Source: an uncultured Bacilli bacterium (GTDB lineage: Bacteria; Bacillota_I; Bacilli_A; RF39; UBA660). From it: a stretch of 59,400 bases of DNA. The notes under the pieces are model-generated. The model was not told where the DNA came from, did not search any database, and saw only the letters and a list, made by a program, of their open reading frames with translations. This document shows positions 7,208 through 29,813 of the stretch, piece after piece (within the stretch, counting starts at the first letter, position 1; every line of letters begins with the position of its first letter). The stretch spans positions 1-59,400 of the forward strand of contig CALVIS010000001.1 of NCBI GenBank assembly GCA_944331805.1, given 5' to 3'. Made by a program: the position numbers and the translations under genes.

Positions 7208-8920
7208 TTATCTCCTAAGTTTTAATTGTTTAATACCATCATAATATTTATTACTTTTATCTATATCATGCATATTACCAATAATTGTATTAACGTCGTC
7301 TTGGTTTAGATTTTTTACAACGTTTGAAGTTAAAATATCTTGAATAGGTATACCATTTATCTCTTTTTTGTAAACTTTTCCTATACCACGAGTTGAAACT
7401 ATATGGGGGATTTTAGATTGATAAACAGCATCTCTAAATGACCACATAAATTCTAATATTTGTTTATTTGGGTATAGAGCTTTTTCTAAATTTCTATCAT
7501 AATCAAAGAAAATATTATCAAATCTATCAAGAGTAGCGGCATCTAGGGCATTTCTTCCTACATATTCTAAGTCTGCCCCTTTTCCCCAAGTGTTAGCCGC
7601 CGCTATTATCCTAAAGTTTGGATTTCTATCTATCGTTTCATGAGGAAAGGCCATATAGCCATTAGCTAAGGCAGAATTAATTACAATCAATGATGAAGGA
7701 TCTGAATTATCTATTTCATCTAAGAAGAATATACCTCCATTTTTAAATGCCTTATAAAATTCAGTTTCTTGATAATTACCACCTGCATCAATGAAGCCCA
7801 TTAATTTAAATTCATTTGAGGCATTATTTGTATAATACATATGTAATCCCAAAGCTTCTGCTACTTGTGCTATTGCTACATTTTTACCACTTCCAGCAGG
7901 CCCAATTAACATAATGGGTTCATCAAGCTGTACTTGGCTTAAGATTTGATTAAACTTCTCATGATAAAATGAGGCTTTAGTTTGTCCAATAACAGTGTCA
8001 TTTAGTTTTATAATATTAATAGTTGGAACTTGTATTTTACTTCTATATTCTTCTAATTTTTTATTAAGTGTATCTTCTAGTTTATCGTCTATATTATATT
8101 TTTTGATTGTTTCTTTGATAGCTTTTAAAACATCTCTTTCAATTTCCTTGTTTGTTAATTCTTTTTTTTCATCATCTTTATTTTTAGAATAAGATTTCTC
8201 AGTTATAAATTCATCATTTGGGGTATCAGCGGTTTCATTAATTGGTTCTATAGTCGGTTCATCTGATATATAAGGTAGTGATTCATCTGCTTGGGTAGAC
8301 ATTTTTTCAATTTCTTCACCATCGAATGTATAAAACTTATTGTTTATCATATATGTATTTTCTTGCATTTCATAAATTTCACTGCAAAATTTGTTTAATA
8401 TATTTTTATCATTTGAAAATATCATTTCATGGTTTCTTTTCGTATATCCATAATATAAATGTGTATAGTCATTATTTGCTTTAGTTACTGCAGCGACTAA
8501 AGAATTTTCTTTATTATCCCAAATTACTAAACAAAAATCCATATAATCACTTAATATTTTAAATTCGCCTGTCCATAGTGTATAATACAATGTATCTATT
8601 AATACAGGATTATTTGAATAGTAACCTTTATTACAGTATTTTTCTAAAGTATGATGCTTTTTTGGATTTAATTCTACATTAAAGTATGCTCCTACATATA
8701 AATTATTGATACTATTACGACTTTTATATGGTTCTTGAAAATATGAACTTTTTTCATTTTCAGGTATGATTTTTATAAAGACTGATTTGTTAGCAACTTC
8801 TTTATTTACTAAATAATTTTCAGTACACTTTTGTTTTAGTTCATCTATTAACAAATCAGTATTTACATCTTCACCATGATAAGCAATAAAGGTTTGAATT
8901 TCCTTTTCATTATTAATCAT
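7208..8920 (-). CDS. CobS/MoxR-clade AAA+ (AAA_5-type) ATPase with an N-terminal amidotransferase-like domain
   Basis: Walker A GPAGSGKN, Walker B FFLDEID, sensor AAANTWGKG and YVGRNALDAATLDRFD (CobS/MoxR-like). Acidic/Lys-rich linker at roughly aa 210-300. N-domain contains DFCLVIWDNKENSLVAAVTKANNDYTHLYYGYTKRNHEMIFSNDKNIL. RBS GAGGAGG. Confidence 0.75.
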   Translation of the reverse strand: MINNEKEIQTFIAYHGEDVNTDLLIDELKQKCTENYLVNKEVANKSVFIKIIPENEKSSYFQEPYKSRNSINNLYVGAYFNVELNPKKHHTLEKYCNKGYYSNNPVLIDTLYYTLWTGEFKILSDYMDFCLVIWDNKENSLVAAVTKANNDYTHLYYGYTKRNHEMIFSNDKNILNKFCSEIYEMQENTYMINNKFYTFDGEEIEKMSTQADESLPYISDEPTIEPINETADTPNDEFITEKSYSKNKDDEKKELTNKEIERDVLKAIKETIKKYNIDDKLEDTLNKKLEEYRSKIQVPTINIIKLNDTVIGQTKASFYHEKFNQILSQVQLDEPIMLIGPAGSGKNVAIAQVAEALGLHMYYTNNASNEFKLMGFIDAGGNYQETEFYKAFKNGGIFFLDEIDNSDPSSLIVINSALANGYMAFPHETIDRNPNFRIIAAANTWGKGADLEYVGRNALDAATLDRFDNIFFDYDRNLEKALYPNKQILEFMWSFRDAVYQSKIPHIVSTRGIGKVYKKEINGIPIQDILTSNVVKNLNQDDVNTIIGNMHDIDKSNKYYDGIKQLKLRR

Positions 8921-9069
8921 TTTGTGCCTCCTCTTAAATATATTTTATATTAATATTTATAAAACGTTTTTTATTATAGGTTCTTCAAACAATAATGTCA
9001 ATATTACTTACTTAATAGAGTCTAAATTAATATTAGATTTTTAAAACTCTTTTAATTTTAATAAAACTA

Positions 9070-10527: not shown

Positions 10528-10593
10528 AAATAAGCAGGGATTATTCCTTGCTTTTGATATATAATTCTAATATAATTACGGTAGGTGAATGAT

Positions 10594-11850
10594 ATGAAAT
10601 ATATTGATTTAACACAAAAACGTGAAAATATAGTAAAGATTGCAAATTTAGATGATAGTAGTTTAAAATATATTGCTTCTATACGTACAAATGATGATTT
10701 TGAGGTTTCTAATAATCCTAATTGTATTTATCAATATACAACTAAACATAATCCTTTCTCTTTAGAAAAAATTATGTTTAATACTAATTTACATATTAAT
10801 TATGATTATTTGCAAGAAAACTATAAAGAACTAATGGATAAAGTTTGTGCTATTTTAAAAGAACATGTAGGTAATTATATATCTTTAGATAAAGAATTTA
10901 TAACAAAAGAGACTATGGAAGCTATAGCAACTAATCAAAATATTAATAAAGTTACTCTTGCTATAGATAGTAAAGATTTATTAGAAGTATTGGAGGTAAT
11001 TAAACATAGAAGTAAAGATATTCCTTTAAATACAATTGTTATAAATATTACTGAATATAATGATTTAAAAATATTTATTAATCATATTGTTTCTATATAT
11101 AAAGATGTAAAAATTATATTTAATATTGATTTTAAAAATTTTAATGCTGATGTATTAAGTGATTTAATAACATATAAAAATATTGTAGTAAAAGAAGAGA
11201 ATCATGAAATAGATTTAGATTTAGCAATAAAAAAAGAATTAAAAATAAGAGAATTGTTAGAGCCAGTAGAATCTATAAAAGATAAACTTTCTCCTTTTGA
11301 AATATATACTAAACTATATCAAATTGTTAAAGATTTTAAATCATATAAAGAAGTAGAAGAAGGAGATGATTTAGATAAATCTAGAACTCTTTCAAAGATA
11401 TTATTTAATGAATATATTGTATGTGAAGGATATGTTAATTTATTACAAGAATTATGTAAACGTTATAATATAGAAACATATTATATGTCAGTAGATGTTT
11501 TGCCTGATGATACAAAAGACTTAAATAATACAAATGACCATGCAAGATTACTTGTTAAAATGAAAGATGATAAGTATGGTATTGATGGACTTTATGTTAG
11601 TGACCCTACTTTGGATAGTATTCACTACAGTCTTTATAATCATATATTAATGACTTTTGATGAAGTTAAAAGAGAGTTAATCGGAGAGGTTACTTTTAAT
11701 GTGGATGATTTCTTAAATGTCAAAAATAAAGAAGAGTTTTATGCATTAGTAAATAATCCTGCCGCTAGATGGAAACTTTCATTCTTAGCACCTACAATTA
11801 GAAATTTTGATGAAGAGAGTTTTGAAAAAATATGTAGAACCTCTTCTTGA
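10594..11850 (+). CDS. transglutaminase-like (Cys-His-Asp) domain protein
   Basis: C-terminal VCEGYVNLLQELCKRYNIE ... DHARLLVKM ... LYVSDPTLD fits the transglutaminase-like cysteine protease core. The ATG at 10594 (RBS GGTAGGTG) is preferred over the GTG at 10585. Ends at the TGA at 11848-11850. Confidence 0.5.
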   Translation: MKYIDLTQKRENIVKIANLDDSSLKYIASIRTNDDFEVSNNPNCIYQYTTKHNPFSLEKIMFNTNLHINYDYLQENYKELMDKVCAILKEHVGNYISLDKEFITKETMEAIATNQNINKVTLAIDSKDLLEVLEVIKHRSKDIPLNTIVINITEYNDLKIFINHIVSIYKDVKIIFNIDFKNFNADVLSDLITYKNIVVKEENHEIDLDLAIKKELKIRELLEPVESIKDKLSPFEIYTKLYQIVKDFKSYKEVEEGDDLDKSRTLSKILFNEYIVCEGYVNLLQELCKRYNIETYYMSVDVLPDDTKDLNNTNDHARLLVKMKDDKYGIDGLYVSDPTLDSIHYSLYNHILMTFDEVKRELIGEVTFNVDDFLNVKNKEEFYALVNNPAARWKLSFLAPTIRNFDEESFEKICRTSS

Positions 11851-14050: not shown

Positions 14051-14167
14051 GATTAACACCCCTTTCTTAATTTGTTTATTAATTATAACACCATTTTATA
14101 GTTATATCAATTGTTTTTTTCAGTAATATGTGATATAATTTTAGAAAAAATTTATTGGAGGAATTAT

Positions 14168-15778
14168 ATGGTTAATGAGCAAAAAGAACTTTCATTTCAA
14201 AAACTTCAAAAGGAAATAAAGGATTTAATATTTCTTTCCCAAAGAAGGAATGTATTTACAGAAGTAAAAGATTTGGTGACTAGCAAAGTTAGCTTGTCAT
14301 TACAAGATGTAATTATTTTGTATCAGGCTTATTTAAAAGATCATTTTAAAGAATTTCATACTGCAAAAGAGGAGCTTGAAAGAAAGTTATCTAGTGACCT
14401 ATCTTATCCTGCTCGTCTGTCATTATCTTTAGTTCGAGATGAATGGCGACAAGATATAAAAACACCAAAAAATATGAAAAAATATTGGTATCGTAGAAAA
14501 TATAATGATTGTTGTAGGGAAACTGTTTCTATAAATTTATTTTTTAATCATCAAGAACAGCTTTTATTAGAAGAAGTATACTTTGATCATAAGCATGATT
14601 CATATTTAAAAAGTAAAAATATAGAAGAAGTTACTAATATTTATAAAAAATATAAAAATGATTATAAAAGAATAATGAATCTATATTATAAATCTATTTT
14701 TTCTATTTCTTTTGTTGGAAAAATTAATGCTAGTGAAACTGAAAAGTCTAAACTAGAAATTTATGTTCTTCCTTTTTATTGTTCGGAAAGAAAGGATGTT
14801 TCTGTTGATCCAGATATAACTGGAGAATGGACACATGATTTACACTATTATAGTGAGGAATTTCCTATTAATCTTTTTATAAAGAAAGTTGAGCTTTTTC
14901 GTTTAAAACCATGGAATCATTATGGTAATATCTTTATTAGTTTTGATTTAGATTATCATTTGCAGGATGCTTTTCTTTATGAAGGTTGGAATTTTTTTAC
15001 TAATGATATTTCGAAACTTATCACAAAAGATAGTGATAGTAGACTTTATCCTGAAATAGAGTTTTTGATTTCTGAAGCGTTTCCTAATTTTAAAATATAT
15101 TTAAAAGATTTACCTATTTTTTTCAGTGATTATTTAGAAAAATATGTTGGAACTGATTATTTAATTGAAGGAAAAAAACAATTTGATAAAGGAAAAGAAA
15201 AGGAAAGAATTAAAAACCTTCGAATTGTTGATAGGACAAAGCAATTGGTTGCACATAACAATATAAAGATTGTAAAACTGATAAAGAAAAATCAAAAGTT
15301 GTATGAAGAGCTTGGTGAGAGACAGTCAATTACAAAGGATATTTTATGTAAGATGATTAAAGATGAAGACAATGGTCACTGGGTAATACGTCCGGAGTTT
15401 AGAGATGATTTAGAATATTATGATTTAAGCGATATATCTTTTGATAATGTAGATGTTAGAGAAGTTGATTTTAGAAATACAAATATTAAAGCTCCGAATT
15501 TTGATCCGCAGATGGTTTATCAAAAGGATTTATCTGGCTGTTCTTTTGAATCTCCAATATACTCTACTAATGGAGTATTATTTGATTATTCTACTAATTT
15601 TACAGACGTTAATTTAGAAAGTACTACTATAAAACAAGAAGCACTTGTTTTATATAATAATAGTATTGCAAATGCAAGAATTAATCAACACACTATTTTA
15701 CCGGATGAATTATGGAAAATAAGAAATGAAGCATTGCGTCAAATAAAGACTAACATAAAAAATAATTATAAATTATAA
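14168..15778 (+). CDS. hypothetical protein with C-terminal pentapeptide-repeat-like region
   Basis: The ATG at 14168 follows the RBS TGGAGGA. The C-terminus (DISFDNVDVREVDFRNTNIKAPNF ... DLSGCSFES ... TNFTDVNLESTTI) has pentapeptide-repeat character. The rest is unrecognised. Confidence 0.45.
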   Translation: MVNEQKELSFQKLQKEIKDLIFLSQRRNVFTEVKDLVTSKVSLSLQDVIILYQAYLKDHFKEFHTAKEELERKLSSDLSYPARLSLSLVRDEWRQDIKTPKNMKKYWYRRKYNDCCRETVSINLFFNHQEQLLLEEVYFDHKHDSYLKSKNIEEVTNIYKKYKNDYKRIMNLYYKSIFSISFVGKINASETEKSKLEIYVLPFYCSERKDVSVDPDITGEWTHDLHYYSEEFPINLFIKKVELFRLKPWNHYGNIFISFDLDYHLQDAFLYEGWNFFTNDISKLITKDSDSRLYPEIEFLISEAFPNFKIYLKDLPIFFSDYLEKYVGTDYLIEGKKQFDKGKEKERIKNLRIVDRTKQLVAHNNIKIVKLIKKNQKLYEELGERQSITKDILCKMIKDEDNGHWVIRPEFRDDLEYYDLSDISFDNVDVREVDFRNTNIKAPNFDPQMVYQKDLSGCSFESPIYSTNGVLFDYSTNFTDVNLESTTIKQEALVLYNNSIANARINQHTILPDELWKIRNEALRQIKTNIKNNYKL

Positions 15779-16915: not shown

Positions 16916-18085
16916 ATGAGATTTAAAAGAATATTTTTAATGGTTTTAGATTCCTTAGGAGTAGGGGAAGCGATCGATGCTGCTAGTTATGGAGATAGTG
17001 GGGCGAATACTTTAGGTCATATTAAAGAAAATTATGATTTATTTATCCCTAATCTTGCTAAAATAGGATTCTTAAATACTTTAAATATGGATGAAAATAC
17101 TGATGTAGATGCTTACTATACTATTGCAAGACCTAATAATGCGGGAAAAGATACTTTAGCAGGTCATTATGAAATGATGGGAATTACATCTAATATTCCT
17201 TTTAAGACTTTTAATGAAAATGGATTCCCTATTGAATTAATTGATGAGATTGAAACTGTTACAGGTAGACGTGTTATAGGTAATAAATGTAGCAACGACA
17301 ATGGTATTATTAATGAACTTGGAGAAAGACAAGTAGATTATGGTTCTTTAATTGTTTATACATCAGCTGACTCTGATTTACAAATCGCTGCTCATGAAGA
17401 TGTTATTAGTCCTGAGATTTTATATAGTTATTGTGAAAAGGTTAGAGAATTAACTCTAAAAGATGAATTTTTAGTAGGCAGAGTAATTGCAAGACCTTTT
17501 ACAGGTAGTAAAGGTAAGTTTAAACTAAATAATGCGGGAAGAAAAGATTATCCAGTAGCACCTCCATCTAAGACTATTTTAGACGATTTAAATGCTAATA
17601 ATTATAATGTCATAGCAATAGGTAAGATGAATGATATCTTTAGTAAAACTAGTATAAATAAAAGTTTAAAAGCTAATTCTAATATGGATGCGATTAATAA
17701 GTTAACTAATGTTATGGATAAAAAGTTTACAGGACTTTGTATGGTTAATTTATGTGATTTTGATAATTTATATGGCCATTTAAGAGATGTGGAAGGATAT
17801 GCTAAAGCGATAGAGGAGTTAGATGTAGAAATACCTATGATTTTAAATAAACTAGAAGTAGATGACTTATTAATCATAACAGCAGATCACGGTAATGATC
17901 CAACTTTTAAAGGAAATGATCATACTAGAGAAAATGTTCCTTTAATTATTTATAGTAGAAGTTTTAAAAATCCTAAGAGATTGGAGATACAAGATACAAT
18001 GGCAGTTATTGGAGCAACTATAGCAGATAATTTTGAAATAACACCTCCAGAAATAGGAACAAGTATATTAGACGAACTAGAGTAG
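16916..18085 (+). CDS. deoB: phosphopentomutase
   Basis: FLMVLDSLGVGE, TADHGNDP and the 389-aa length are typical. Confidence 0.93.
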   Translation: MRFKRIFLMVLDSLGVGEAIDAASYGDSGANTLGHIKENYDLFIPNLAKIGFLNTLNMDENTDVDAYYTIARPNNAGKDTLAGHYEMMGITSNIPFKTFNENGFPIELIDEIETVTGRRVIGNKCSNDNGIINELGERQVDYGSLIVYTSADSDLQIAAHEDVISPEILYSYCEKVRELTLKDEFLVGRVIARPFTGSKGKFKLNNAGRKDYPVAPPSKTILDDLNANNYNVIAIGKMNDIFSKTSINKSLKANSNMDAINKLTNVMDKKFTGLCMVNLCDFDNLYGHLRDVEGYAKAIEELDVEIPMILNKLEVDDLLIITADHGNDPTFKGNDHTRENVPLIIYSRSFKNPKRLEIQDTMAVIGATIADNFEITPPEIGTSILDELE

Positions 18086-18114
18086 GGAAGAGGAGTAGTT
18101 TAGGGTATAAAAAG

Positions 18115-18137
18115 ACTAGTAGTTTAATTCTACTAGT
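18115..18137. terminator. bidirectional terminator between deoB and the DUF1540 gene
   Basis: ACTAGTAG / CTACTAGT 8-bp stem with a 7-nt loop. Confidence 0.55.
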
Positions 18138-18312
18138 TCTCTTCTTCATTTTTTTCAAAACTTGCACATACAGTTTGTTCTTGGTCACAAACTTCGTCTT
18201 TTGGACAATCACAGTTGCTACTAACCTTAATCTCATCTAAGTTGCATTCTTGATTGTTACTATTATATTTGCAACTGTCAACGTCACATTTAATACTTTG
18301 TTTCTTTTTCAT
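18133..18312 (-). CDS. DUF1540-like Cys-rich small protein
   Basis: 59 aa counting from the ATG at 18312 (RBS GAAGGAGAGAG). IKCDVDSCKYNSNNQECNLDEIKV ... CDCPKDEVC is the typical DUF1540 cysteine pattern. Confidence 0.65.
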   Translation of the reverse strand: MKKKQSIKCDVDSCKYNSNNQECNLDEIKVSSNCDCPKDEVCDQEQTVCASFEKNEEEN

Positions 18313-18804
18313 TTTTCTCTCTCCTTCAATATTTATATTTCCCAAAAAATATAATATTATTCCCCTATTTTTAAAATTCACTTCCCCTACTTTGTTTTAT
18401 ATTAAAAAAGAGTAGAATAGTAGTATGTTATACATTATAAATAATTAATTTATACATATAACTGATAACTGGATAACTTATTGATTTCAATTAAATAAAT
18501 TATAAATTTATAAATGTGATATATATAATTATGTTTTAATTATATATGCTTCCATATGCATAGTAGTTACTAAAATCAAATAATAGTTACTAATTAAAGC
18601 AGATATTTTTTTAAATCAAAAATATTATTATTAAAATGGAGATTATAATATAGAATAGTAAAAGACATAAGATTAACAATTATTCATCTAAAATAATTAA
18701 ATATTTAACTTCCTATAATATATATTATGTTAACTAGAGTATATAGTAAGCTCTGTACCTGAAAAAACATACAGTCCTTAATATCAACCCCATTAATATT
18801 ATAC

Positions 18805-19113
18805 CTAATCAAAAGAAAAAATTAATGCCATAAGAATTAAGAAAATACCTAATACTGATATAATTACAGCAGGTATTATTGTAGTATCATATAATGTTTT
18901 GCTATTTGTTTGCTCTTTTTCAATATATTCAGTTTCAGAGTTTTCTTCATCAAAAACATATTTCAATTTTTTATTTATACTAGCTAAATAACCAATGACA
19001 AAAACTACTAAAACTAATAAAAGTATTGGAAATCCATAAGTTAAAAACAAAACATAATATGAATTATATGCTATTATATTTGAAATACCTTCTACTGTAC
19101 TATTATTAACCAT
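18805..19113 (-). CDS. small membrane protein (2 predicted TM helices)
   Basis: 102 aa with two long hydrophobic stretches flanking an acidic loop. Confidence 0.5.
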   Translation of the reverse strand: MVNNSTVEGISNIIAYNSYYVLFLTYGFPILLLVLVVFVIGYLASINKKLKYVFDEENSETEYIEKEQTNSKTLYDTTIIPAVIISVLGIFLILMALIFSFD

Positions 19114-19234
19114 AAAACAAACACCTTTCTACAAGCAAATTATATCAAATTATCTAGTCTACTCCCCTACTCCCCTGCTTGTTTTACATATACTTTACAC
19201 TTCTGATATATAATAGAACTAGATATAAATCTAG

Positions 19235-20323
19235 TTAATCTCTATTATTATTATCTGGGATACATATATACTTGTTATGAATTTTTACAACTAATACTTT
19301 ATCCATTATAGAAATATTTTTTGAACTAAATTGCTTAAATGTAACATCTAAATGAACATTATATAAGGGAAAATATATTGTAACTATATTATATCTAGTA
19401 CTTGGTGAAGTACTAATATTACTTATATAGCCGTTATTAATAGAATTTATCTTATTGGATTTTAATTTTATAACAGATAATAAATTAATAAATAGAGCTA
19501 TAATAATCAATATATTAATAATTAAATAAATAGCAAGTGGTAATAATATATTTGTGTTATTGCTAGAAAGATAACTTTTAAATAAACCTAGCGGTTTAAA
19601 AAAGGAAAATAAAAATAACATAACTATAATTTGGAGAATTAATGATTTTATATAATAATTGGTTATTATCTTTTTGTTCTCTTCCGATATTTCATTATAT
19701 TTAAAATTTTTTTTAGATAGTTTATTACTTTTTAAAGCACGATTTTTTAAATTTTCTAATTGATTTAACTGATTAAATTTAAACTTTCCTTTTTTAAAAT
19801 CAAATATTTTAAATACTAAATTGTTTCTATTTTCAAAATAATCACAATAAGATTGTAAATCATTTTTATCAGTATAATTTGATATAACGTTTATTAATTG
19901 ATAAAACTCTTCATTATTTATGCTATTAGATGATAAATTATCTAAAATACTATATATTTTTTGTTTTACATTATAAATATTAATTATGTTATCCAAATTA
20001 TTATTTATAAGTATTTTTTTTATTTCAATATAAGCATTAATATATTCATTTTTAATAGTGTTATCTTTTAGACATTCTATAATACTAAAATTACAATATA
20101 AACTTTTTAATTGTTCATTGGATAAATAAATTTTTTCAATATCATAAACAGAATTAGTTTTTAAAAGCAAGCCTTTTATATTATAAATAGTATTACTAAT
20201 GTTTTCAGTTTTAGAAAGATGATAGATAAGATAAAAAACGTCTTGCATATGATAATTATTTGTATCTAGTTTTAAAATTAAATATAGCTCTAGGGCTTCT
20301 TTTGAAAAGATGTCATTATACAT
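19235..20323 (-). CDS. hypothetical membrane-anchored protein
   Basis: 362 aa. Asn/Ile-rich helical N-half, two hydrophobic helices at roughly aa 230-290, and a small C-terminal beta-like domain. Lies 10 nt downstream of the HTH gene. Confidence 0.5.
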   Translation of the reverse strand: MYNDIFSKEALELYLILKLDTNNYHMQDVFYLIYHLSKTENISNTIYNIKGLLLKTNSVYDIEKIYLSNEQLKSLYCNFSIIECLKDNTIKNEYINAYIEIKKILINNNLDNIINIYNVKQKIYSILDNLSSNSINNEEFYQLINVISNYTDKNDLQSYCDYFENRNNLVFKIFDFKKGKFKFNQLNQLENLKNRALKSNKLSKKNFKYNEISEENKKIITNYYIKSLILQIIVMLFLFSFFKPLGLFKSYLSSNNTNILLPLAIYLIINILIIIALFINLLSVIKLKSNKINSINNGYISNISTSPSTRYNIVTIYFPLYNVHLDVTFKQFSSKNISIMDKVLVVKIHNKYICIPDNNNRD

Positions 20324-20333
20324 TTTATACCTT

Positions 20334-21101
20334 TTATACCTTTCTTGATTGAATCTCAGCTATTTTCTCAAGTACTTCTTTAGCATTTGTCTCATTAATT
20401 TCACTGTACCCTAGTTCCCTTAATGCTTGTACTTTAGCAGTATTTAACTCTTGAGTACGACTAAGCTTTTCTTCTTTTTTCGCTTCAATATCTTGGACAA
20501 ATCTCTTATGGGTTTCTGCTATCTTATTTTTAGATGCACCACCATTATGATATAGAGTCATTGCAGAAAATAGAATACTTTCAAATATAAACTGTTTATC
20601 TTTATCAAAAGTAAATTCCATTGGATCAGTAAATCCCATGGATTTAGACATATAAGCCAAAATATATCTTAATTCATCAGCAGTCTCCATTGATTGTAAA
20701 TAATGATATAAATATACATATGTATTATAAGTAGTTTTAGTCTTATCTTCTGATAATTTTTCTTTTAATAGATTAATTATATCAGCCATTATTTCCTGTT
20801 CTTTTTTATTAAAACATTTAAGGTCTGCTAACACTTCTCTATTAGAAGAATCTTTTACTCCTTCATTTAATCTATTTTCAACTTCAATAATATAATCACT
20901 TGTTACAGTAATACCACTTACGCCTTCTTCATCTTCTATATTTAATAAGGCAAGTAGTCTAACTGCTTTTTCTTTAGGCCATTGTGATAGACTATCCATT
21001 GCTAAATAGTTATATAACATTTGTCTTGATACTCCTAAATACTTAGCAAGCCTTACCTTTGAAATTCCAAGTTCACTTAATAATATATTTAATTCTTTCA
21101 T
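20334..21101 (-). CDS. XRE-family HTH protein with uncharacterised C-terminal domain
   Basis: LNILLSELGISKVRLAKYLGVSRQMLYNYL is a classic HTH_3. The ATG at 21101 follows the RBS GGTGGTG. Confidence 0.7.
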   Translation of the reverse strand: MKELNILLSELGISKVRLAKYLGVSRQMLYNYLAMDSLSQWPKEKAVRLLALLNIEDEEGVSGITVTSDYIIEVENRLNEGVKDSSNREVLADLKCFNKKEQEIMADIINLLKEKLSEDKTKTTYNTYVYLYHYLQSMETADELRYILAYMSKSMGFTDPMEFTFDKDKQFIFESILFSAMTLYHNGGASKNKIAETHKRFVQDIEAKKEEKLSRTQELNTAKVQALRELGYSEINETNAKEVLEKIAEIQSRKV

Positions 21102-21122
21102 GTCACACACCACCTATAATAC

Positions 21123-21151
21123 ATTTTAATTAGTTTGACAAGTTTAGTCAA
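21123..21151 (-). promoter_or_regulatory. putative promoter with palindromic operator
   Basis: Minus strand reads TTGACT, 17 nt, then TAAAAT. The -35 is embedded in the inverted repeat TTGAC-N7-GTCAA (21135..21151). Confidence 0.35.
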
Positions 21152-21185
21152 GTAAAATCTGTGTAAAATACTTTACAAAAAGAAA

Positions 21186-21202
21186 AAAGAGATAATCTCT
21201 TT
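21186..21202 (-). terminator. rho-independent terminator after mnmA
   Basis: AAAGAGA-TAA-TCTCTTT hairpin, followed on the minus strand by a T-run. Confidence 0.5.
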
Positions 21203-21261
21203 TCAAATTATCCTCTATCTCTTTCCATGAATATCCCTCCTACTATTAGTATAAGCATATT

Positions 21262-22371
21262 TTAAAGTAAATACCAGAGTTTTTTATCATCTTTTCTAAC
21301 TTCTTTAACAATTCCACCACCTAAACAGTATTCTCCATCATAAAAAACACATGCTTGTCCAGGAGTTACCGCTTTAACATTATTATATCTAACGATTATT
21401 TCTCCATTATCTAGATATTCTAGTTTAACAGGAACATCAGGCGCTCTATATCTAAATTTAGCAGTGCACTCTAAAGGCCTTTCATCGCAGTTAAAGTTAA
21501 TAGTCTCTAAAATAGCACTATCTGAATATAAATATTCATTATCCTCCCCTTCTGCCACATATAAAACATTCTTATTTAAATCTTTTCCAACAACAAATAA
21601 CTTATCTTTAGTACCACCAACATCAAGTCCCTTTCTCTGCCCTATTGTATAGTACATAAGACCAATATGTTCTCCTAATACTTCATTAGTATCAATATTA
21701 ACAATATTACCTTTTTTGTTTGGTAAATAATTCTTAAGAAAGTTTTTAAAGTTTCTCTCACCTATAAAACAAATACCAGTAGAGTCTTTCTTTTTAGCAG
21801 TAACTAAATCATATTTTAAAGCAATCTCACGTACTTCCTTTTTATCTTTAATATCTCCTAGTGGAAATAAAACATTTTGTAATTGTTCTTTAGATACTTG
21901 TGATAGAAAATAAGTCTGATCTTTATTATGTTCATGACTTCTCATAAGTCTACCGTTTTCAATTTTAGCATAATGTCCTGTAGCAATATAGTCAGCACCT
22001 AACTTTTTCGCTTCCCTAACAAATAAATCAAACTTAATATATTTATTACACATAATATCAGGGTTAGGTGTTCTCCCCTTCTTTAATTCATCTAAAAAGT
22101 AAGTAAAGACGTCATCCCAATACTCTTTAATAAAATCTACTCTATGTAAAGGTATTCCTAACTTATCACATACCGCTTTAGCATCATTATAATCTTCTTC
22201 TTGTGGACATATATTATTACCTAAATTAGGATTACCTAAGAAGTCATTATTAATAGAACTATCCCAATTACGCATAAATAAACCAATAACATCATAGCCT
22301 TGTTCTTTTAAAAGAATAGCAGCGACAGATGAATCTACTCCACCACTTATTCCAACTACAACTTTCTTCAT
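21262..22371 (-). CDS. mnmA: tRNA 2-thiouridine(34) synthase
   Basis: PP-loop [10 protein letters not shown]. Full-length similarity pattern (CNKYIKF, GHYA, DQTYFL, C-terminal barrel). The ATG at 22371 follows the RBS GAGGTGG. Confidence 0.94.
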
Positions 22372-22469
22372 AGATACCACCTCTAACTCGTACTAATTAT
22401 ACTATATATACCCTTTACTTTCAAGGAAAATATGTTATAATATGTAGTGCAACTTTAAGGGGTGGTTTA

Positions 22470-24242
22470 ATGAATAAAAGCTTTAAAAAGATAATTAATT
22501 TAGAAGAAAATATCTCTATAGATGATTTAAAAGCAGCTTTAGAATACTTTATAACTATCAAAGATAATGATTTAAAAGAAGAATTTCTATTAAAATGTAA
22601 AAAAGTTATTATATCTTTTCTTAATAAATTATTACCTATGGTAGATGAGTATCCTATTTCTATATCATATGACAAAACAGTTTTTAAAATAGATAGGCTT
22701 CTATATTGGGCTAATTTTTTATATGGTAATAAAATTTTTCCTATATTTACTAAAGATATACAAAATATAAATGATAACTCTCTTTATTTAGCCTCTTTAG
22801 ATAGATACCGTAATAATGTCAATATAGATTTATTTGATGATAAAGAATTACTGTTAGATTTAGATATGTATAGTAAATCAATTGAATTAGAATCTAAATA
22901 TAGTGATATTAATAAAGATGTATTAGAGGAAGCTTATTACTTATATTTTAGTCTTAATAATTTTTTAGATAAAAAAGATTATGAAGAAAGAAAAAGAAAA
23001 TTTATGGATAAAAATAATATTTATCCAGGTACATTAAAAGATTATGTTGAAACATATGGAATGCTATATTTAAATATTCCCTTAAAAAAGATAGATAAGA
23101 TGATAAACTTTGTTGAAAGTGCTACTAGTCATTTTTCTAATGATTTCTTTAAATTTGAAGAAGTTTTAAACAATATCATAAATAGTAATGATATTAACTA
23201 TATAAAAGAAATTGTATTTACTAATCATCTTTCTCCATATGTAATAAAAAGTTTTATTGAAAAATATAGATTTTATAATAGAAAGTATTCTAATAATTTA
23301 GATAATATAATAAAGAAAATAAACGCTTCTATAATATCATTAGAAAAAGAACATAAATATATTCATTATTCTATCGCTTTAACTAAAATAGAAAGTAGTA
23401 ATGATTTAGAAGAAATTAAAATTATAGTAAAAAACAATATAACATATTTAACAAAAGATAATGTGGAGAGATTTATTACAATTTATAGAGTTACTTTATC
23501 TGATAAAAAGAAACAAGAATTAGAAGAAGAATTACTCAAAAAAACTGAAATAGCAAAAGAGGACATAAAAAAAGACAATGCTGCTGATAGAGCATTAGGA
23601 ATAGAAAGAAGAAAAGAAAATTTATATAATAGTATTGATTTCAATATATTTTTAAGCTCTGATATTAAGAGTAAGGATGATTTTTGTAAACTAATGGATA
23701 TCAGAGAAAGTGATTTTAATACTTTATTTTCAATGTTAGAAGTTAGAGATAATGAACTATACTTAAAAATTAAAGGAAAAATAAGAAATCTACAAGGCCA
23801 AAGATATGCAGTATTAATTAACAAAGTAAATTCTATTGCCGATAACATTATTAATGGAATAGAACTAGAAGATGGTAGTAGAAGAAATTTTGAAATACTT
23901 GATTATTTTCTTAGTACTAAATTAGACTTTAATGAATTTATAGACTTATATAATAAAAGCAGAAATATAGATATAGAATCACTAAAAGCAATTAAGATCT
24001 TCTTTGCTAAAAATAAACTAACTAATAAACTAAATATCAATCAAGAACTTGATGGAAGAACTATATTTATGGTAGATGATAAACCATATGAAGTAAGTAA
24101 AGAGGAAAAACAAACAGTTCTTAACTATCTAGGAGTTAAAGATATACCTCTTTATACAAAAGTATATAAACAAGCTTTAAAAAGACATATAAATGGTAAT
24201 TTAATATTAGAAGATGATAAAAAACTAATTAAGAAAGGATAA
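22470..24242 (+). CDS. large helical Lys/Asn-rich protein, family copy 1
   Basis: 590 aa. Paralogue of 24248..26047 along its whole length. HTH-like stretch FCKLMDIRESDFNTLFSML. Conserved tail IPLYTKVYKQALKRHINGNLILEDDKKLIKKG. Confidence 0.6.
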   Translation: MNKSFKKIINLEENISIDDLKAALEYFITIKDNDLKEEFLLKCKKVIISFLNKLLPMVDEYPISISYDKTVFKIDRLLYWANFLYGNKIFPIFTKDIQNINDNSLYLASLDRYRNNVNIDLFDDKELLLDLDMYSKSIELESKYSDINKDVLEEAYYLYFSLNNFLDKKDYEERKRKFMDKNNIYPGTLKDYVETYGMLYLNIPLKKIDKMINFVESATSHFSNDFFKFEEVLNNIINSNDINYIKEIVFTNHLSPYVIKSFIEKYRFYNRKYSNNLDNIIKKINASIISLEKEHKYIHYSIALTKIESSNDLEEIKIIVKNNITYLTKDNVERFITIYRVTLSDKKKQELEEELLKKTEIAKEDIKKDNAADRALGIERRKENLYNSIDFNIFLSSDIKSKDDFCKLMDIRESDFNTLFSMLEVRDNELYLKIKGKIRNLQGQRYAVLINKVNSIADNIINGIELEDGSRRNFEILDYFLSTKLDFNEFIDLYNKSRNIDIESLKAIKIFFAKNKLTNKLNINQELDGRTIFMVDDKPYEVSKEEKQTVLNYLGVKDIPLYTKVYKQALKRHINGNLILEDDKKLIKKG

Positions 24243-24247
24243 TGCTT

Positions 24248-26047
24248 ATGAATAAAGATAGTTTCGATAAAATTATCAATAATGATAAAGAAGATATAAG
24301 TAGTAAAGATTTTACTAAAGCAATAGAATATTTTTTATCTGTTAAAGATAATAATAGTAAAAAACAGTTTTTAAATAATTTTAAGCCATTAATTAATTAT
24401 TATTTTACAAAAAGTTCTTTAGTTTTTGAAATTGATCATGATGTTTATACTATAAATAATAATATTGCTTATAAAATAGGACAGCTTTCTTTTTACATGT
24501 ATTCTTTATATGGAAAAACTAACCTTGAAAAAATAAAAAAAGAAGAAAATATTGATTATTATAAAGGGTATAAAACTTTTTTCGATAAGTATTACTTTAT
24601 ATCTAAACTCTTTCAAAATGAGGTTCCTTTAATTAAAAGACTAAAAACATATCGAAAAGAAAAAGATATATCAGAAAAATATCAGGATTTTAATATAGAT
24701 ATATTAAAAGAAGCATATTACACAGCCTTTACCATCGATAATTATTCTGATAAAGATAATTATTATAAGAGAATTGATTCATTCCTAGAAAAATATAATA
24801 TTAATATTGATACATTTAAAGAATATATTAGAGCATATGGCTTGCTATATCTAAACACAGACTTAAAACATATAGATAATAAAATTTTATCAATTGTTTT
24901 AGCACTTAAAAAGATTAATATTACTGGTTCAAAAGAGGTATTAGCTAAAGTACTTGAAAAAAACAAAGACTCTAATGATAATGAAAACTTTGAAAATATT
25001 GTATTTTCTAAACACATATCTTTAGATGTGCTTGATTATTTATATGAAAATAAGTACTTTGATACTGATACTTATAAGAATTTATATGTTAAAGTTAGTA
25101 AAGCTATTGAAAGTCTTAGTGAAAAATATAAATATATTCACTACTCTATCGTTATGAGTAAACTAGAAAAAGAAGAAGATCTTAATATAATAGATAACAT
25201 AGTAGAAAATAATAATAATTTGATACATCCTGAGTATATTAGAAAGTTTCTTAATAATTATAGACAAACTCTAACAGAAGAAGAAAAAGAAAATTTAAAA
25301 GAACAAATAACTACTAAAATAGATGAGGCAAGAAAAAGAATTAACTATAAAAAAATGATAAAGAGAAGACAAAGTGATGTAGAAAATACTAAAGAAATAT
25401 TAAAGAATATTGATTTTACCCTATTTCTTGATAATAGTATTCGAAGCATTAAACAATTTTGCCAACTAGTAGGTATCACGGAGAGAACATATTATAAATG
25501 CATAAAAATTCTTGAAGAAGTTAATAATCCATTATATTTACAAATAAAAGAAAAAATAGAAAAACATAATAAGAAAAATAAAGAAATTAACAAATCGACT
25601 GAAAATATAATATCTATTGTTAAGCAAATAGAATGTGGAGTTATAGATAAAGATTGTAATATAAGACCGTTTGAATTATTAGATTATTTTCTTAATACTA
25701 AATTAAATTATAGTGAGTTTTTTGATATTTACATAAATAGTAATGATTGTAGTAAATCTTCTTTAACTGCTTTTAAAAATTTTATGGTTAACAATAAAAT
25801 ATCATATGTAATAGCCGATAATAAAATGGATAAAATAACTGTTGATCAAGAGCTTAATGGTACTACTATATTAATGATAGATAATGAGCCTTATGAAGTA
25901 ACAAGAGAAGAAAAAGAAGAAGTTATTAACTTCCTTCAAGAAAAAGAGATACCTCTTTATATAAAAGTATATAAACAAGCCCTAAGAAGACATATAAGTG
26001 GTAAATTAATATTGGAAGATGATAAAAAAATGATTAAGAAAGGATGA
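24248..26047 (+). CDS. large helical Lys/Asn-rich protein, family copy 2
   Basis: The ATG at 24248 aligns MNKDSFDKIIN with MNKSFKKIIN of copy 1, and the RBS AAAGGA lies in the upstream gene's end. HTH-like FCQLVGITERTYYKCIKIL. Same C-terminal tail. Confidence 0.6.
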   Translation: MNKDSFDKIINNDKEDISSKDFTKAIEYFLSVKDNNSKKQFLNNFKPLINYYFTKSSLVFEIDHDVYTINNNIAYKIGQLSFYMYSLYGKTNLEKIKKEENIDYYKGYKTFFDKYYFISKLFQNEVPLIKRLKTYRKEKDISEKYQDFNIDILKEAYYTAFTIDNYSDKDNYYKRIDSFLEKYNINIDTFKEYIRAYGLLYLNTDLKHIDNKILSIVLALKKINITGSKEVLAKVLEKNKDSNDNENFENIVFSKHISLDVLDYLYENKYFDTDTYKNLYVKVSKAIESLSEKYKYIHYSIVMSKLEKEEDLNIIDNIVENNNNLIHPEYIRKFLNNYRQTLTEEEKENLKEQITTKIDEARKRINYKKMIKRRQSDVENTKEILKNIDFTLFLDNSIRSIKQFCQLVGITERTYYKCIKILEEVNNPLYLQIKEKIEKHNKKNKEINKSTENIISIVKQIECGVIDKDCNIRPFELLDYFLNTKLNYSEFFDIYINSNDCSKSSLTAFKNFMVNNKISYVIADNKMDKITVDQELNGTTILMIDNEPYEVTREEKEEVINFLQEKEIPLYIKVYKQALRRHISGKLILEDDKKMIKKG

Positions 26048-26049
26048 AA

Positions 26050-27402
26050 ATGAAAAAAATACTTAATGATAATATTATAAAACTTGGTAACAATGTACTA
26101 TTATATTTCATAGCAAATACGATTTTAAAAATATTAAAGATGAATCTTTTTATCGCTAACTTTACTATACCAGTTCTTACTATTAAATATATTGGAGAAA
26201 TTTGTGTTAATAGATACAATAATAAGAAAAAGTTAAATCTAAGTAAAAAGAAATTAAAAGGAAAAGTAAACAGATTGAATATTGAGGGAATTTCTATTAA
26301 TGTCAACGACTTATTAGAAAATGAAATAACAAAAGAAAATCCTAATATTAAAGAGTTAAAAATAGAAAAGTCACAATCTAATCCTTACTTTAATTTTCTT
26401 AAAATACTTACTATATATATTCTTTTAAACTGTTTTAATTCTATAACTACCTCTTGTAACATTTTATTTAATGCTTCAACCACTGAAAAAGTTTTAGATT
26501 ACTTTGATGGAAAAGATAGTCTTAACAAAGAAGAACTAAATAATATTTTACATGACCTTGAAACTGAAACGATTAAAGTAACTAATGATAATAAGTTTAA
26601 ACTTGATAGTGTTGATACTAAAGAAGAAATTGATAATTATTTATTACTCAATGCTATCAATGATAATCCTTATGCTAATAAGAAAGAAAAAGAAGTAATG
26701 TATAACTTTTTAGATTTCTTTAATGATAACCCCTATTTAGATAAAGAAAAAACTTATCTTAATTTAGTTTATCTTGATTTTGACCGTAACTATAATCCCT
26801 TCTCTTCTGGAAAAGATAATAATAATGGCACTGTTACCTTAGCAGATTATGATTATGATGATATTACTTATTATACTAATCCTACTGAAGAAATAATTGC
26901 TCATGAAGTTACTCATGCTATTTTTGATACTATAACAATTCCTTCCGCTTATGTAGAAGGCTTTGCAAAAATAACAGAAAGTGAATATTTTACTAAAGAA
27001 GACGATAGTAATAATTCCTACAATAAGAACACTGCTGTTACTAAAGCTACTATAGAACTTATTGGCAAAGATAAATTTTTAAAGGCAATGAGTAATGATG
27101 ATATAAATATAATTAAAAATGCTTTATTAGATTTAAATGTTAATACTTGGTCTAATGATATTGAGGCAGAAAAAGAGATAGATAGTTTCCTAAATACTTT
27201 ATATAAAGGACTCAATGATAATGAAACTTATAGTGATATTGCAGATACTCTTATTAGTCTTGGTAGTGATTCTTTTACTGATATAGATAGATTTGGAAGA
27301 TTATGTACTTGTACTAATATTTTAAAAGTTGAAGACTATAATGTTTATCTTCCCTATTACTATTTTAATGAAGAAAAAGATAAGACTTTAACTCTTAATT
27401 AA
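26050..27402 (+). CDS. HExxH/EGFA zinc-metallopeptidase-like protein
   Basis: IIAHEVTHAIFDTITIPSAYVEGFAKI is HExxH followed 14 residues later by an EGFA-type Glu (gluzincin-like). Weakly hydrophobic N-terminal segments. Start overlaps or abuts the upstream stop. Confidence 0.5.
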   Translation: MKKILNDNIIKLGNNVLLYFIANTILKILKMNLFIANFTIPVLTIKYIGEICVNRYNNKKKLNLSKKKLKGKVNRLNIEGISINVNDLLENEITKENPNIKELKIEKSQSNPYFNFLKILTIYILLNCFNSITTSCNILFNASTTEKVLDYFDGKDSLNKEELNNILHDLETETIKVTNDNKFKLDSVDTKEEIDNYLLLNAINDNPYANKKEKEVMYNFLDFFNDNPYLDKEKTYLNLVYLDFDRNYNPFSSGKDNNNGTVTLADYDYDDITYYTNPTEEIIAHEVTHAIFDTITIPSAYVEGFAKITESEYFTKEDDSNNSYNKNTAVTKATIELIGKDKFLKAMSNDDINIIKNALLDLNVNTWSNDIEAEKEIDSFLNTLYKGLNDNETYSDIADTLISLGSDSFTDIDRFGRLCTCTNILKVEDYNVYLPYYYFNEEKDKTLTLN

Positions 27403-28028
27403 ACAACTAATTTAATTAAAGCCGGAGATAAGAATACTTCTATAAAACTACAACCTATAAATATTAATAAAACTGTTACATATACTTGTAGATATCTCTT
27501 CATAGAACTTCTTAGATTAATATCTACACCTCTAAATAAATATTTAAATAATTTAATACCAAAATAAAGGGCATAGAAGCCTAAAAATAAGCTCATTAAT
27601 AAAGTAATCAATTGATGAGGAAAAAGATAAGTAATGGCCTTTAAAATACCATTAAAATGATATGTATAAATGATAGATGATAAAGAAAAACCAAAGATAA
27701 AAGCAGATGATGCTAAACTAAAGATAATTAAAGGTATTCCTATAATAGATATACCTAATAAAAAGATAAATGTTACAAAAGAAATATTGCCAATTAAACT
27801 ATTAATTAAAGCACTCTTATAATCTATATCATTATTTTTTATACTAGTAAAGAAACTATCTAGACTTGTAGTTACTAAATTATGATCACTCTTATTTAAT
27901 ACAACAGCATATATAATACCAAGTATTAAACTTATAGTCATTACTATTATTAAAAAGATATATATTTTCTTTTGTTCTGCTAATTTGTTAGTTACTTTAT
28001 TCTTTACTTTTTTAAGTTTTAAATCCAT
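27399..28028 (-). CDS. spoIIM: stage II sporulation protein M-like membrane protein
   Basis: About 209 aa with 5 hydrophobic helices in a SpoIIM-like layout. The ATG at 28028 follows the RBS AGGTGA. Assigned by size and topology, with other sporulation genes in the window. Confidence 0.5.
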   Translation of the reverse strand: MDLKLKKVKNKVTNKLAEQKKIYIFLIIVMTISLILGIIYAVVLNKSDHNLVTTSLDSFFTSIKNNDIDYKSALINSLIGNISFVTFIFLLGISIIGIPLIIFSLASSAFIFGFSLSSIIYTYHFNGILKAITYLFPHQLITLLMSLFLGFYALYFGIKLFKYLFRGVDINLRSSMKRYLQVYVTVLLIFIGCSFIEVFLSPALIKLVV

Positions 28029-28130
28029 TATAATCACCTAGTAAATATTATTCAAAAAAGACTATTATTTACCTAAATTCATTTTACAAAAATAGACTTT
28101 TTATATATAATTAAAAATGAGGTGAAACAG

Positions 28131-28223
28131 ATGAATCAAAAGATAGTTAAAATAGTCTCTGCTATAATGTTAGTAGCAATACTAGCTGGTGTAATTAGTG
28201 TAATATTTTATTATGTAATATAA
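28131..28223 (+). CDS. possible 30-aa hydrophobic peptide
   Basis: RBS GAGGTGA 6 nt before the ATG. MNQKIVKIVSAIMLVAILAGVISVIFYYVI. Followed by the hairpin AAGAAATAG...CTATTTCTT. Confidence 0.3.
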   Translation: MNQKIVKIVSAIMLVAILAGVISVIFYYVI

Positions 28224-28247
28224 AAAAAGAAATAGGTTTTGTTTAAT

Positions 28248-29267
28248 CTATTTCTTTTTAAATTCAACAACTTTTCCATCAGTAATGTCATAATCACTAT
28301 TATCATTAAATACTACATCTTCCCTAAACAGTTCATTAATTAGTTTATCTATATCAGAAGTATATTTTTCTTTTAAGTATTCACTATCTTTTAAATCAAA
28401 TTCTTCTAAAACTTCTTCAAGTCCAAATACATTTTCTAAATGATACTTACGAATTATTTTATCTAAAACAGCATAGATATCAAAATAGAATTTTCCCCTA
28501 TATTCTTCTGCAAATTTATCAACTACTTGATAAACTATCGCTACTCGTTGCTGATTAACTCTATTAATATAATTATCCCAATTATTCTTAACTAAATCTA
28601 AGTCTTTATCTAAATTATCTAAAAGATATAAATGACCCTCTAAATATTCTTTTAAATAAAAATCTAAATTACCAATATAATCTAATAAATACTTAATATT
28701 CCCTATTTTAATCAATTTTTCTTTATCTTTAATATTTTTATGAACCATTTCTTCAAAATTCTTATCTTGATAAAATATTTCATATAAAAAACATATAGCA
28801 TAGTAATCAAGTATTAAAGGCTTGTCTTCATACTTAGATAAAACTACTTCAAAACCAAGACCTATTAATTCTTCAAGTTCTTTATCACTATTTTGAACTG
28901 CTCCTACTTCTACTCTATCTTCAGCATAAAAACCAGTTCTATATATTTTATAGTTATTAAAGACATCTTTATCTATAGAAGCCATTAAAACGATAATCTC
29001 TTTATATTCTAAACTATCTCTATCTAAACTATCTAATAAGTAATCAGCATCTTCCTGATAGACATCTAAGTTATCTTTAAAGTTAAGTAACATATATTTA
29101 ATAACATCATAACTTCTTCTATAAGATATATCTAAATAACTATAATATGATATATCATGAGATAATTTTAAAGCATCAAAAAGAAAGTTATTATCACTTT
29201 CTAATTCTTCTAAATTATCTATATCATTACCAAGAATATAATTATATATTAATCTTTTTGAATACAT
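28248..29267 (-). CDS. hypothetical acidic protein
   Basis: 339 aa, Asp/Glu/Tyr-rich, with no recognised motif. RBS TAGGAG. Confidence 0.5.
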   Translation of the reverse strand: MYSKRLIYNYILGNDIDNLEELESDNNFLFDALKLSHDISYYSYLDISYRRSYDVIKYMLLNFKDNLDVYQEDADYLLDSLDRDSLEYKEIIVLMASIDKDVFNNYKIYRTGFYAEDRVEVGAVQNSDKELEELIGLGFEVVLSKYEDKPLILDYYAICFLYEIFYQDKNFEEMVHKNIKDKEKLIKIGNIKYLLDYIGNLDFYLKEYLEGHLYLLDNLDKDLDLVKNNWDNYINRVNQQRVAIVYQVVDKFAEEYRGKFYFDIYAVLDKIIRKYHLENVFGLEEVLEEFDLKDSEYLKEKYTSDIDKLINELFREDVVFNDNSDYDITDGKVVEFKKK

Positions 29268-29274
29268 AATAACT

Positions 29275-29382
29275 CCTATTTAAACAACTTAGTAGTATTA
29301 ACTCTCTTGTTATTAGAAAAACAACTTACTTTCTTAACATTTTTCTTTTTATTATAATTTCCTTTAACTTTTCTTATTTCCA
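29275..29382 (-). CDS. possible 35-aa basic peptide
   Basis: RBS AAGGGGAG. MEIRKVKGNYNKKKNVKKVSCFSNNKRVNTTKLFK. Fills the gap between two same-strand genes. Confidence 0.25.
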
Positions 29383-29392
29383 TAAACTCCCC

Positions 29393-29695
29393 TTACCTTT
29401 CTATATATCCTTCTATTTCTGGTGTTATATCACTAACTAACAAATCACTAGTATCATACTTTAATACTATATCATTAAGCCTTTTCTTATCTTTAGCAAG
29501 ATATAATATAAGAAGTCCTGCAATTCTATTAGCAGTATATTGATTTAATTTATAAACATCACTTGGATTAATATTATATTTCCTAATAATATCGTTAATT
29601 GGGCCATATTTATATATATAATTAATATAACTTCTAGTAATTAACTCTATATTTTTATCTTTTTTTAAAAATTTAGCAGTTTTCCATACTTTCAT
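29393..29695 (-). CDS. hypothetical 100-aa protein
   Basis: RBS AAGGGGGA. No recognised motif. Confidence 0.45.
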   Translation of the reverse strand: MKVWKTAKFLKKDKNIELITRSYINYIYKYGPINDIIRKYNINPSDVYKLNQYTANRIAGLLILYLAKDKKRLNDIVLKYDTSDLLVSDITPEIEGYIER

Positions 29696-29813
29696 AGTAT
29701 TCCCCCTTAATTAGCTCTATATTATATCATATTTGATTAATATTGGCAAGATTTAACACGTCTTTTTTTCTTAAAACGCTCCATAATAGTAATGTAGCTA
29801 AGGAGTGATTAAA

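Follow-up and report, generated by a model that had tools for sequence, protein, structure and literature searches.

A catalytically inactive asparagine-synthetase-type amidotransferase domain joined to a phage-type AAA+ ATPase in uncultured gut Bacilli

Why an ATPase of the MoxR/CobS kind should carry at its N-terminus what resembles a glutamine amidotransferase deprived of its nucleophile is the question raised by a gene for a 570-aa protein in contig CALVIS010000001.1 (assembly GCA_944331805.1, positions 1 to 59,400) of an uncultured Bacilli bacterium of the RF39/UBA660 lineage; the whole 59,400-nt stretch analysed is referred to below as the window. A sequence-only reading of the gene had assigned the N-terminal domain (N-domain) to the class-II, or N-terminal nucleophile (Ntn), amidotransferase fold, with residues 115-200 tracking asparagine synthetase AsnB and no nucleophilic Cys. 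It had suggested that the module might sense a ligand, and had proposed profile and structure comparisons and an inspection of position 2 in homologues. We find that the ancestor of residues 1-203 was the glutaminase domain of a class-II amidotransferase of the asparagine-synthetase type, with the four-layer Ntn sandwich kept, and that this domain, a pseudoenzyme as judged from its residues, is tied by a linker to an intact AAA+ motor, for which it probably serves as a recognition module.

Assignment of the N-domain to class-II amidotransferases was borne out by profile comparison, by its predicted structure and by a bridging sequence. The family alignment used was made of 49 non-redundant N-domains from full-length relatives, of which 118, all with the same domain architecture, were compared throughout. 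In hhalign it matched nine diverse AsnB-type domains, taken from plasmids and Escherichia coli, with 96% probability (E 3.8e-9, 139 columns) and E. coli AsnB 1-202 alone at E 3.8e-4 over 155 columns, both in the very register read earlier for residues 115-200, for which both quoted sequences are accurate. Alignment to the GlmS glutaminase domain alone was not significant (E 0.43), which points to an affinity specifically with the AsnB branch. An AlphaFold2 model of the N-domain, built on the family alignment (pLDDT 87.8, pTM 0.87), was compared with the PDB using Foldseek: the best 50 matches were all class-II amidotransferases, with E. coli AsnB at the top (E 2.9e-9, TMq 0.65) and GlmS, TsnB9, human ASNS, beta-lactam synthetase, PurF and EgtC among the others. 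All 25 significant matches of the model in a viral structure library were class-II amidotransferases as well.

Simpler searches detected little of this. Pairwise BLASTP of residues 1-210 against E. coli AsnB was not significant (E 0.33), PDB sequence searches with the N-domain or its profile gave nothing relevant, and a word-indexed homologue search with the N-domain alone returned a single fragment, so that full-length and exhaustive searches were needed. In the 570-aa protein itself, residues 128-184 matched GATase_7 at E 0.19 (12-16 bits against a gathering cut-off of 25) and best of all DUF3700 (E 1e-3 to 2.6e-4, 21 bits against 27), and among the 49 family N-domains Pfam found GATase_7 in five (best 4.7e-7), DUF3700 in four and GATase_6 in two. 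An exhaustive phmmer search with the N-domain, covering 1.84 billion representative proteins, gave 39 relatives. One of them (P0160, E 8.6e-4) is a genuine GATase_7 fragment (Pfam 1.7e-12) that shares 32% identity over 69 aa with residues 128-196 (pairwise E 1e-11) and 39% over 75 aa with E. coli AsnB.

To assess the state of the former active site, residues invariant in an AsnB-type alignment were carried onto the protein and the 118 family sequences. The 570-aa protein has no Cys1: the N-terminal strand that bears it in AsnB is left unaligned by the profile, here and in the family (consensus MxxxEKSGQIFIAYKG), and Cys at position 2 occurs in none of the 118 full-length relatives and in none of the 39 distant representatives. 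When the predicted first strand (residues 11-15, with a helix from 21) is matched to CSIFGVF of AsnB, Cys1 would fall at position 8 or 9, which is Ile8/Gln9 in this protein and Gly/Gln in the family consensus. Among the glutamine-binding residues of AsnB (Arg49, Glu76 and Asp98), Arg49 lies inside a three-residue deletion and Glu76 is deleted, both throughout the family, while Asp98 corresponds to Asn103, or to Ser102 after a one-residue shift, the family consensus having Asp102 only with that shift. Asn74-Gly75 of AsnB, the oxyanion-hole pair, is Gly77-Ala78 here, at positions where the relatives have Asn (76/118) or Ser (30/118) followed by Gly (105/118). Pfam finds after the N-domain no ammonia-receiving domain (Asn_synthase, SIS or PRTase), and a charged linker and AAA_5 stand there instead. 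The lack of an N-terminal Cys, the deletion of Arg49 and Glu76, and the change of Asn74-Gly75 to Gly-Ala indicate that the N-domain is unable to work as a glutaminase and hence is, by these sequence criteria, a pseudoenzyme that cannot hydrolyse glutamine; the absence of the nucleophile noted earlier is thus upheld, and considerably more than the nucleophile has been lost.

Several positions around the site are better kept in the family than in this protein. Of the 118 relatives, 94 have Ser or Thr at position 7 and 100 have Gly next to it, where this protein has Glu7-Ile8; two Asp residues near the Asp98 position (Asp100 and Asp102), each present in 93/118, are both lost here; and Lys50 is found in 113/118. 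A coordinated loss of such 'active-site' residues was considered as a sign of a live pocket in the majority type and rejected, the subgroups without Ser-Gly having diverged across the N-half. One distant relative, P0154, begins MAGSTRCGKYFVAYKG, with Cys-Gly at the family Ser-Gly site behind a six-residue leader, in the manner of a propeptide-bearing Ntn enzyme.

Nor is a misplaced start codon at issue. The product of the open reading frame (ORF) at 7208..8920 begins MINNEKEIQTF, in agreement with the MINNEK, not MCG, of the sequence-only reading, and an in-frame TAA at 8947-8945, 27 nt 5' of this start, leaves no upstream start able to restore an MC... N-terminus. The ribosome-binding site noted before the ATG at 8920 is also in place (Table 1).

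The C-terminal module has a Pfam AAA_5 match at residues 336-467 (50.4 bits, cut-off 22) and matches midasin (1.7e-18) and NorQ in the PDB, and residues 212-518 match phrog_249 ('porphyrin biosynthesis', that is, phage CobS-like) at 9.9e-57. Besides the Walker motifs, sensor-1 N443, R456 and LDRF 464-467 are invariant in the 118 sequences. With its motifs intact, this is an AAA+ protein of the phage CobS/MoxR-like type. The earlier MoxR/CobS label therefore holds as regards the AAA_5 family and a CobS-like phage type but not as true CobS, an identity rejected on a TIGR01650 score of 20.3 bits against a cut-off of 558 and on the lack of cob genes among the neighbours; NCBIfam gave nothing above its cut-offs for the 570-aa protein. 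Where Lys-Ser/Thr is usual, Walker A has Lys-Asn at its end (GxAGSGKN), both in the 118 bacterial relatives and in phage homologues (loci L020 3228-4307 and L019 3021-4430), and this ending may mark the ATPase clade as a whole. One related genome (L001 11480-12151) has a second copy of the ATPase module, 27% identical, ~3.7 kb downstream of the main operon described below.

Conservation is distributed very unevenly along the protein. Median identity to the relatives is 25% for residues 1-119, the half with the former glutamine site, 56% for residues 120-203 (56-61% across all subgroups), 30% for the linker and 85% for the ATPase, whose conservation (85-88%) suggests that its function is under strong selection. 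In the N-domain, nine positions are invariant and some 25 near-invariant across the 49 sequences, which are under 75% identical to one another; in the C-half, F129, C130, D135, A143-T146 (AxVT), L155-Y-Y-G158, T160, E165, S169-N170, C179 and NTY188-190 are invariant or near-invariant, and hold in every subgroup. Linker length in the family ranges between 68 and 151 residues (~110 in this protein), and the last part of the linker is helical and common to the phage ATPases. Tandem copies of the N-domain also occur, two ahead of the ATPase in P0072 (812 aa), two in P0122 (537 aa) and four in P0124, a 906-aa protein with no ATPase motif. The family as a whole comprises well over a hundred sequence clusters from uncultured gut Bacilli of humans, rabbits, goats, deer and chickens.

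The ATPase gene has a dedicated neighbour, whose product matches phrog_1909, equivalent to Pfam DUF7192, at 1.3e-38. ATPase and DUF7192 genes are adjacent in 17/17 related genome loci of uncultured gut Bacilli, classed as Bacilli incertae sedis, with differing flanks, and the two are co-transcribed as a two-gene operon. By sequence, DUF7192 has no match in the PDB, and its model (pLDDT 77) gave no significant structural match, the best being the NorD vWA, Rea1 MIDAS and vWF A1 domains (E 0.05-0.3, TM ~0.2); the vWA/MIDAS domains of NorD and Rea1 are partners of AAA_5 motors. The DxSxS motif is absent from the partner. A vWA-like fold is therefore a hint from the model only, and we do not call DUF7192 a vWA domain.

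What, then, might the dead domain do? The fast-changing pocket half, the conserved C-half, the tandem copies and the variable linker fit a binding or scaffolding module that uses its surface rather than the old pocket, and we favour, with moderate confidence, a role for the AsnB-type pseudoenzyme as the N-terminal recognition module of the intact motor to which the linker ties it. The conserved C-terminal sheet half would be the docking surface for a client protein, for the partner or for a neighbouring subunit, and the ring, powered by ATP hydrolysis and working with DUF7192, would go on to remodel the docked protein, by analogy with the MoxR/vWA pairs NorQ/NorD and CobS/CobT. Four points tell against this reading. 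Most family members, though not this protein, retain Ser7-Gly8, Asn/Ser77-Gly78 and Asp100/Asp102, which allows, to some degree, for a pocket that still functions in the majority type. The residue at the Cys1 site is assigned by a predicted secondary-structure register, not by superposition. The weak DUF7192 matches make the MoxR/vWA analogy a weak one for the partner. Finally, the binding role is drawn only from the conservation pattern and the architecture.

Other roles can be imagined for the N-domain. It might be a small-molecule sensor that gates the ATPase allosterically when its old pocket is filled by glutamine, by asparagine or by a similar amide, and the oxyanion pair surviving in most relatives, Lys50 and the two Asp residues near the Asp98 position would all suit this. 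However, the substrate-holding residues Arg49 and Glu76 of AsnB are deleted family-wide, the window protein has lost Asn-Gly and both Asp as well, the half bearing the pocket is the least conserved part of the protein, and tandem arrays suit a scaffold better than a sensor. A sensor is thus rather unlikely, and for glutamine the ligand-sensor suggestion of the sequence-only reading finds no support, because the pocket-forming half, at 25% identity, is the part that evolves fastest. That same low identity of the N-half, and the fact that phage homologues work without an N-domain, would fit a domain in decay that does nothing by itself, a mere folded spacer or solubility tag before the ATPase, but the invariant and near-invariant positions, a C-half that is 56-61% identical in all subgroups and the retention of the domain in over 100 sequence clusters, with duplication in tandem, make this unlikely. 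AsnB-type enzymes pair via their glutaminase domains, so the pseudo-domain could also act as bait, capturing one of the cell's own active class-II amidotransferases by such pairing and delivering that enzyme to the motor. The operon would then descend from a phage host-takeover module and be devoted to the ATP-driven regulation or remodelling of nitrogen-transfer enzymes in these reduced gut Bacilli, a possibility that we hold to be quite unlikely.

Two further alternatives concern not the role of the domain but its nature. The majority type could still be an enzyme, a self-processing Ntn hydrolase that removes its six-residue MxxxEK leader to expose Ser7 as nucleophile, the window protein having been inactivated recently. 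Position 7 is indeed mostly Ser or Thr with Gly next to it, P0154 carries Cys-Gly there behind its six-residue leader, and in Bacillus subtilis PurF a propeptide is removed. Nevertheless, the predicted secondary-structure register would put Cys1 at 8 or 9, not 7; Arg49 and Glu76 are missing family-wide; the Ser-Gly motif also heads the internal repeat of P0072, where there is no free N-terminus; the subgroups without it have diverged over the entire N-half and not specifically at the site residues; and the window protein has Glu7-Ile8, so that we consider self-processing highly improbable. As for the resemblance being a matter of chance, or of an annotation error in which, for example, the start was misplaced or two genes were run together, the non-significant BLASTP to E. 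coli AsnB, the empty PDB sequence search and Pfam scores under the gathering cut-offs would fit it. We count this possibility as refuted by the significant profile and fold matches, by the same architecture in 118 full-length relatives, and by the strong promoter, ribosome-binding site and upstream stop in place.

Comparison with known systems separates what is familiar in this protein from what is new. The glutaminase domain of E. coli AsnB (PDB 1CT9; GATase_7/GATase_6), the best structural match, shares the four-layer Ntn fold and the signatures VNG-YN, FxFxxxD, xLYxGY and xxSx with the subsequent strand, all aligning in register; the N-domain differs from it in the missing Cys1, the deleted Arg49 and Glu76 and the Gly-Ala in place of Asn74-Gly75, and the protein differs in having a linker and AAA+ ATPase in place of the synthetase domain and in Pfam scores under the cut-offs. 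Beta-lactam synthetase and related AsnB descendants keep an AsnB-type glutaminase domain without the Cys, and these N-domains (PDB 1JGT and 1MC1) match our model at E 1.5e-5. In those proteins, however, the dead domain is still fused to the adenylating synthetase domain and helps to form the substrate site, whereas here it is joined to an unrelated motor. DUF3700 proteins (aluminium-induced, Wali7-type single-domain class-II amidotransferase-like proteins), the best Pfam match of residues 128-184 and a match of some relatives too, are stand-alone rather than ATPase fusions, and the score here is under the cut-off. MoxR-class ATPases with vWA partners (NorQ/NorD, CobS/CobT, RavA/ViaA and midasin) share the AAA_5 family and a dedicated adjacent partner gene, but the ATPase here is not CobS, and its partner is not demonstrably a vWA protein and has no DxSxS motif. 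Nucleophile-less AsnB-type domains and MoxR/CobS-like motors with dedicated partners are hence already known. What appears new is the fusion of a dead amidotransferase domain to an AAA+ motor, wide and well conserved in gut Bacilli: no model in Pfam or NCBIfam covers the N-domain, and literature searches on DUF7192, on MoxR with amidotransferase and on pseudo-amidotransferase with AAA+ found no description of such a fusion, in line with the sequence-only reading, which knew of none.

The ATPase/DUF7192 pair as such is already catalogued in phages, and is uncharacterised. The motor is closely related to the AAA ATPase of phage K-like viruses, and DUF7192 accompanies this ATPase constantly, in bacteria and phages alike. 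In tblastn against phage genomes the protein matched 664 records, mostly of Staphylococcus, cyanobacterial, Mycobacterium and Listeria phages, and every match spanned only residues ~258 to 567; the N-domain had no match in 50,697 phage records. Staphylococcus phage GH15 encodes an ATPase (ORF047, 36% identical, GAGSGKN) followed by a DUF7192 protein (ORF046, E 6e-86), and in such phage K-like Staphylococcus phages and other Firmicute phages the ATPases are 36-43% identical, have the GxAGSGKN Walker A and, in the GH15 pair, stand in the identical gene order, DUF7192 downstream (PHROG 249 and 1909). The phage proteins differ in lacking the amidotransferase-like domain, and the bacterial pair in lying among housekeeping genes. 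In phage K-like therapeutic phages this pair forms part of the core, though it is routinely given the wrong label 'porphyrin biosynthesis', and the client of the dead domain in bacteria may reveal the substrate of the phage-type motor. In Enterococcus phage vB_CECAV_04 (L019 3021-5623) a homologous ATPase has a different N-terminal extension, of ~230 residues and without Pfam match, and the 380-aa gene downstream does not match DUF7192; the motor thus seems to accept varied N-terminal modules and partners.

Table 1. Parts of the two-gene operon and its expression signals, with positions in the window.
Feature	Position	Strand	Remarks
Whole gene, 570 aa	7208..8920	-	Pseudo-amidotransferase domain, charged linker and AAA+ ATPase
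Residues 1-203	8312..8920	-	Diverged AsnB-type class-II (Ntn) glutamine amidotransferase fold, catalytic residues gone
Residues 1-119	8564..8920	-	Half bearing Cys1, Arg49, Asn74-Gly75 and Asp98 in real enzymes; E7-I8 and G77-A78 here
Residues 120-203	8312..8563	-	Conserved sheet half; segment aligned to AsnB in the sequence-only reading
Residues 204-315	7976..8311	-	Linker rich in Lys, Glu, Asp, Ile and Thr
Residues 316-570	7211..7975	-	AAA_5 (MoxR/CobS/midasin-type) ATPase module, PHROG 249
Walker A GPAGSGKN, residues 340-347	7880..7903	-	Invariant in 118 relatives
Walker B FFLDEID, residues 398-404	7709..7729	-	Invariant in 118 relatives
Partner gene, 305 aa	6286..7203	-	DUF7192 / phrog_1909; starts 4 nt past ATPase stop
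Promoter TTGACA-17-TATAAT	8973..9001	-	Sigma-70-type, 12/12 consensus positions; serves two-gene operon
Ribosome-binding site AAGAGGAGG	8927..8935	-	6 nt 5' of ATG

In the window, the operon is flanked on both sides by housekeeping genes (lexA, polA, a formyltransferase gene, fpg, pyk, gmk and a HIGH-nucleotidyltransferase gene), and in other lineages the pair adjoins rpoBC, a tRNA synthetase gene, addAB or glmS, with no mobile-element genes nearby. In the lineage with glmS, which encodes a genuine class-II amidotransferase, the two stand tail-to-tail (L023/L024 10677-12477), probably by coincidence, given that the neighbours differ from lineage to lineage. Scans of the window for Rfam families and tRNAs gave no RNA features, and the PADLOC defence models nothing meaningful. 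Two ORFs near the operon, at 10585-11850 (421 aa) and 14111-15778 (555 aa), have no Pfam match at E 1e-5. The ORF at 226-984 (252 aa) aligns with the RNB (RNase II/R) profile, which has 326 positions, over positions 50-164 only, and may be a truncated or split exoribonuclease gene. G+C content is 21-23% at 18000-30000 and 25-31% elsewhere, and at ~28-32 kb the cumulative GC skew shifts from rising to falling and the gene strand switches as well.

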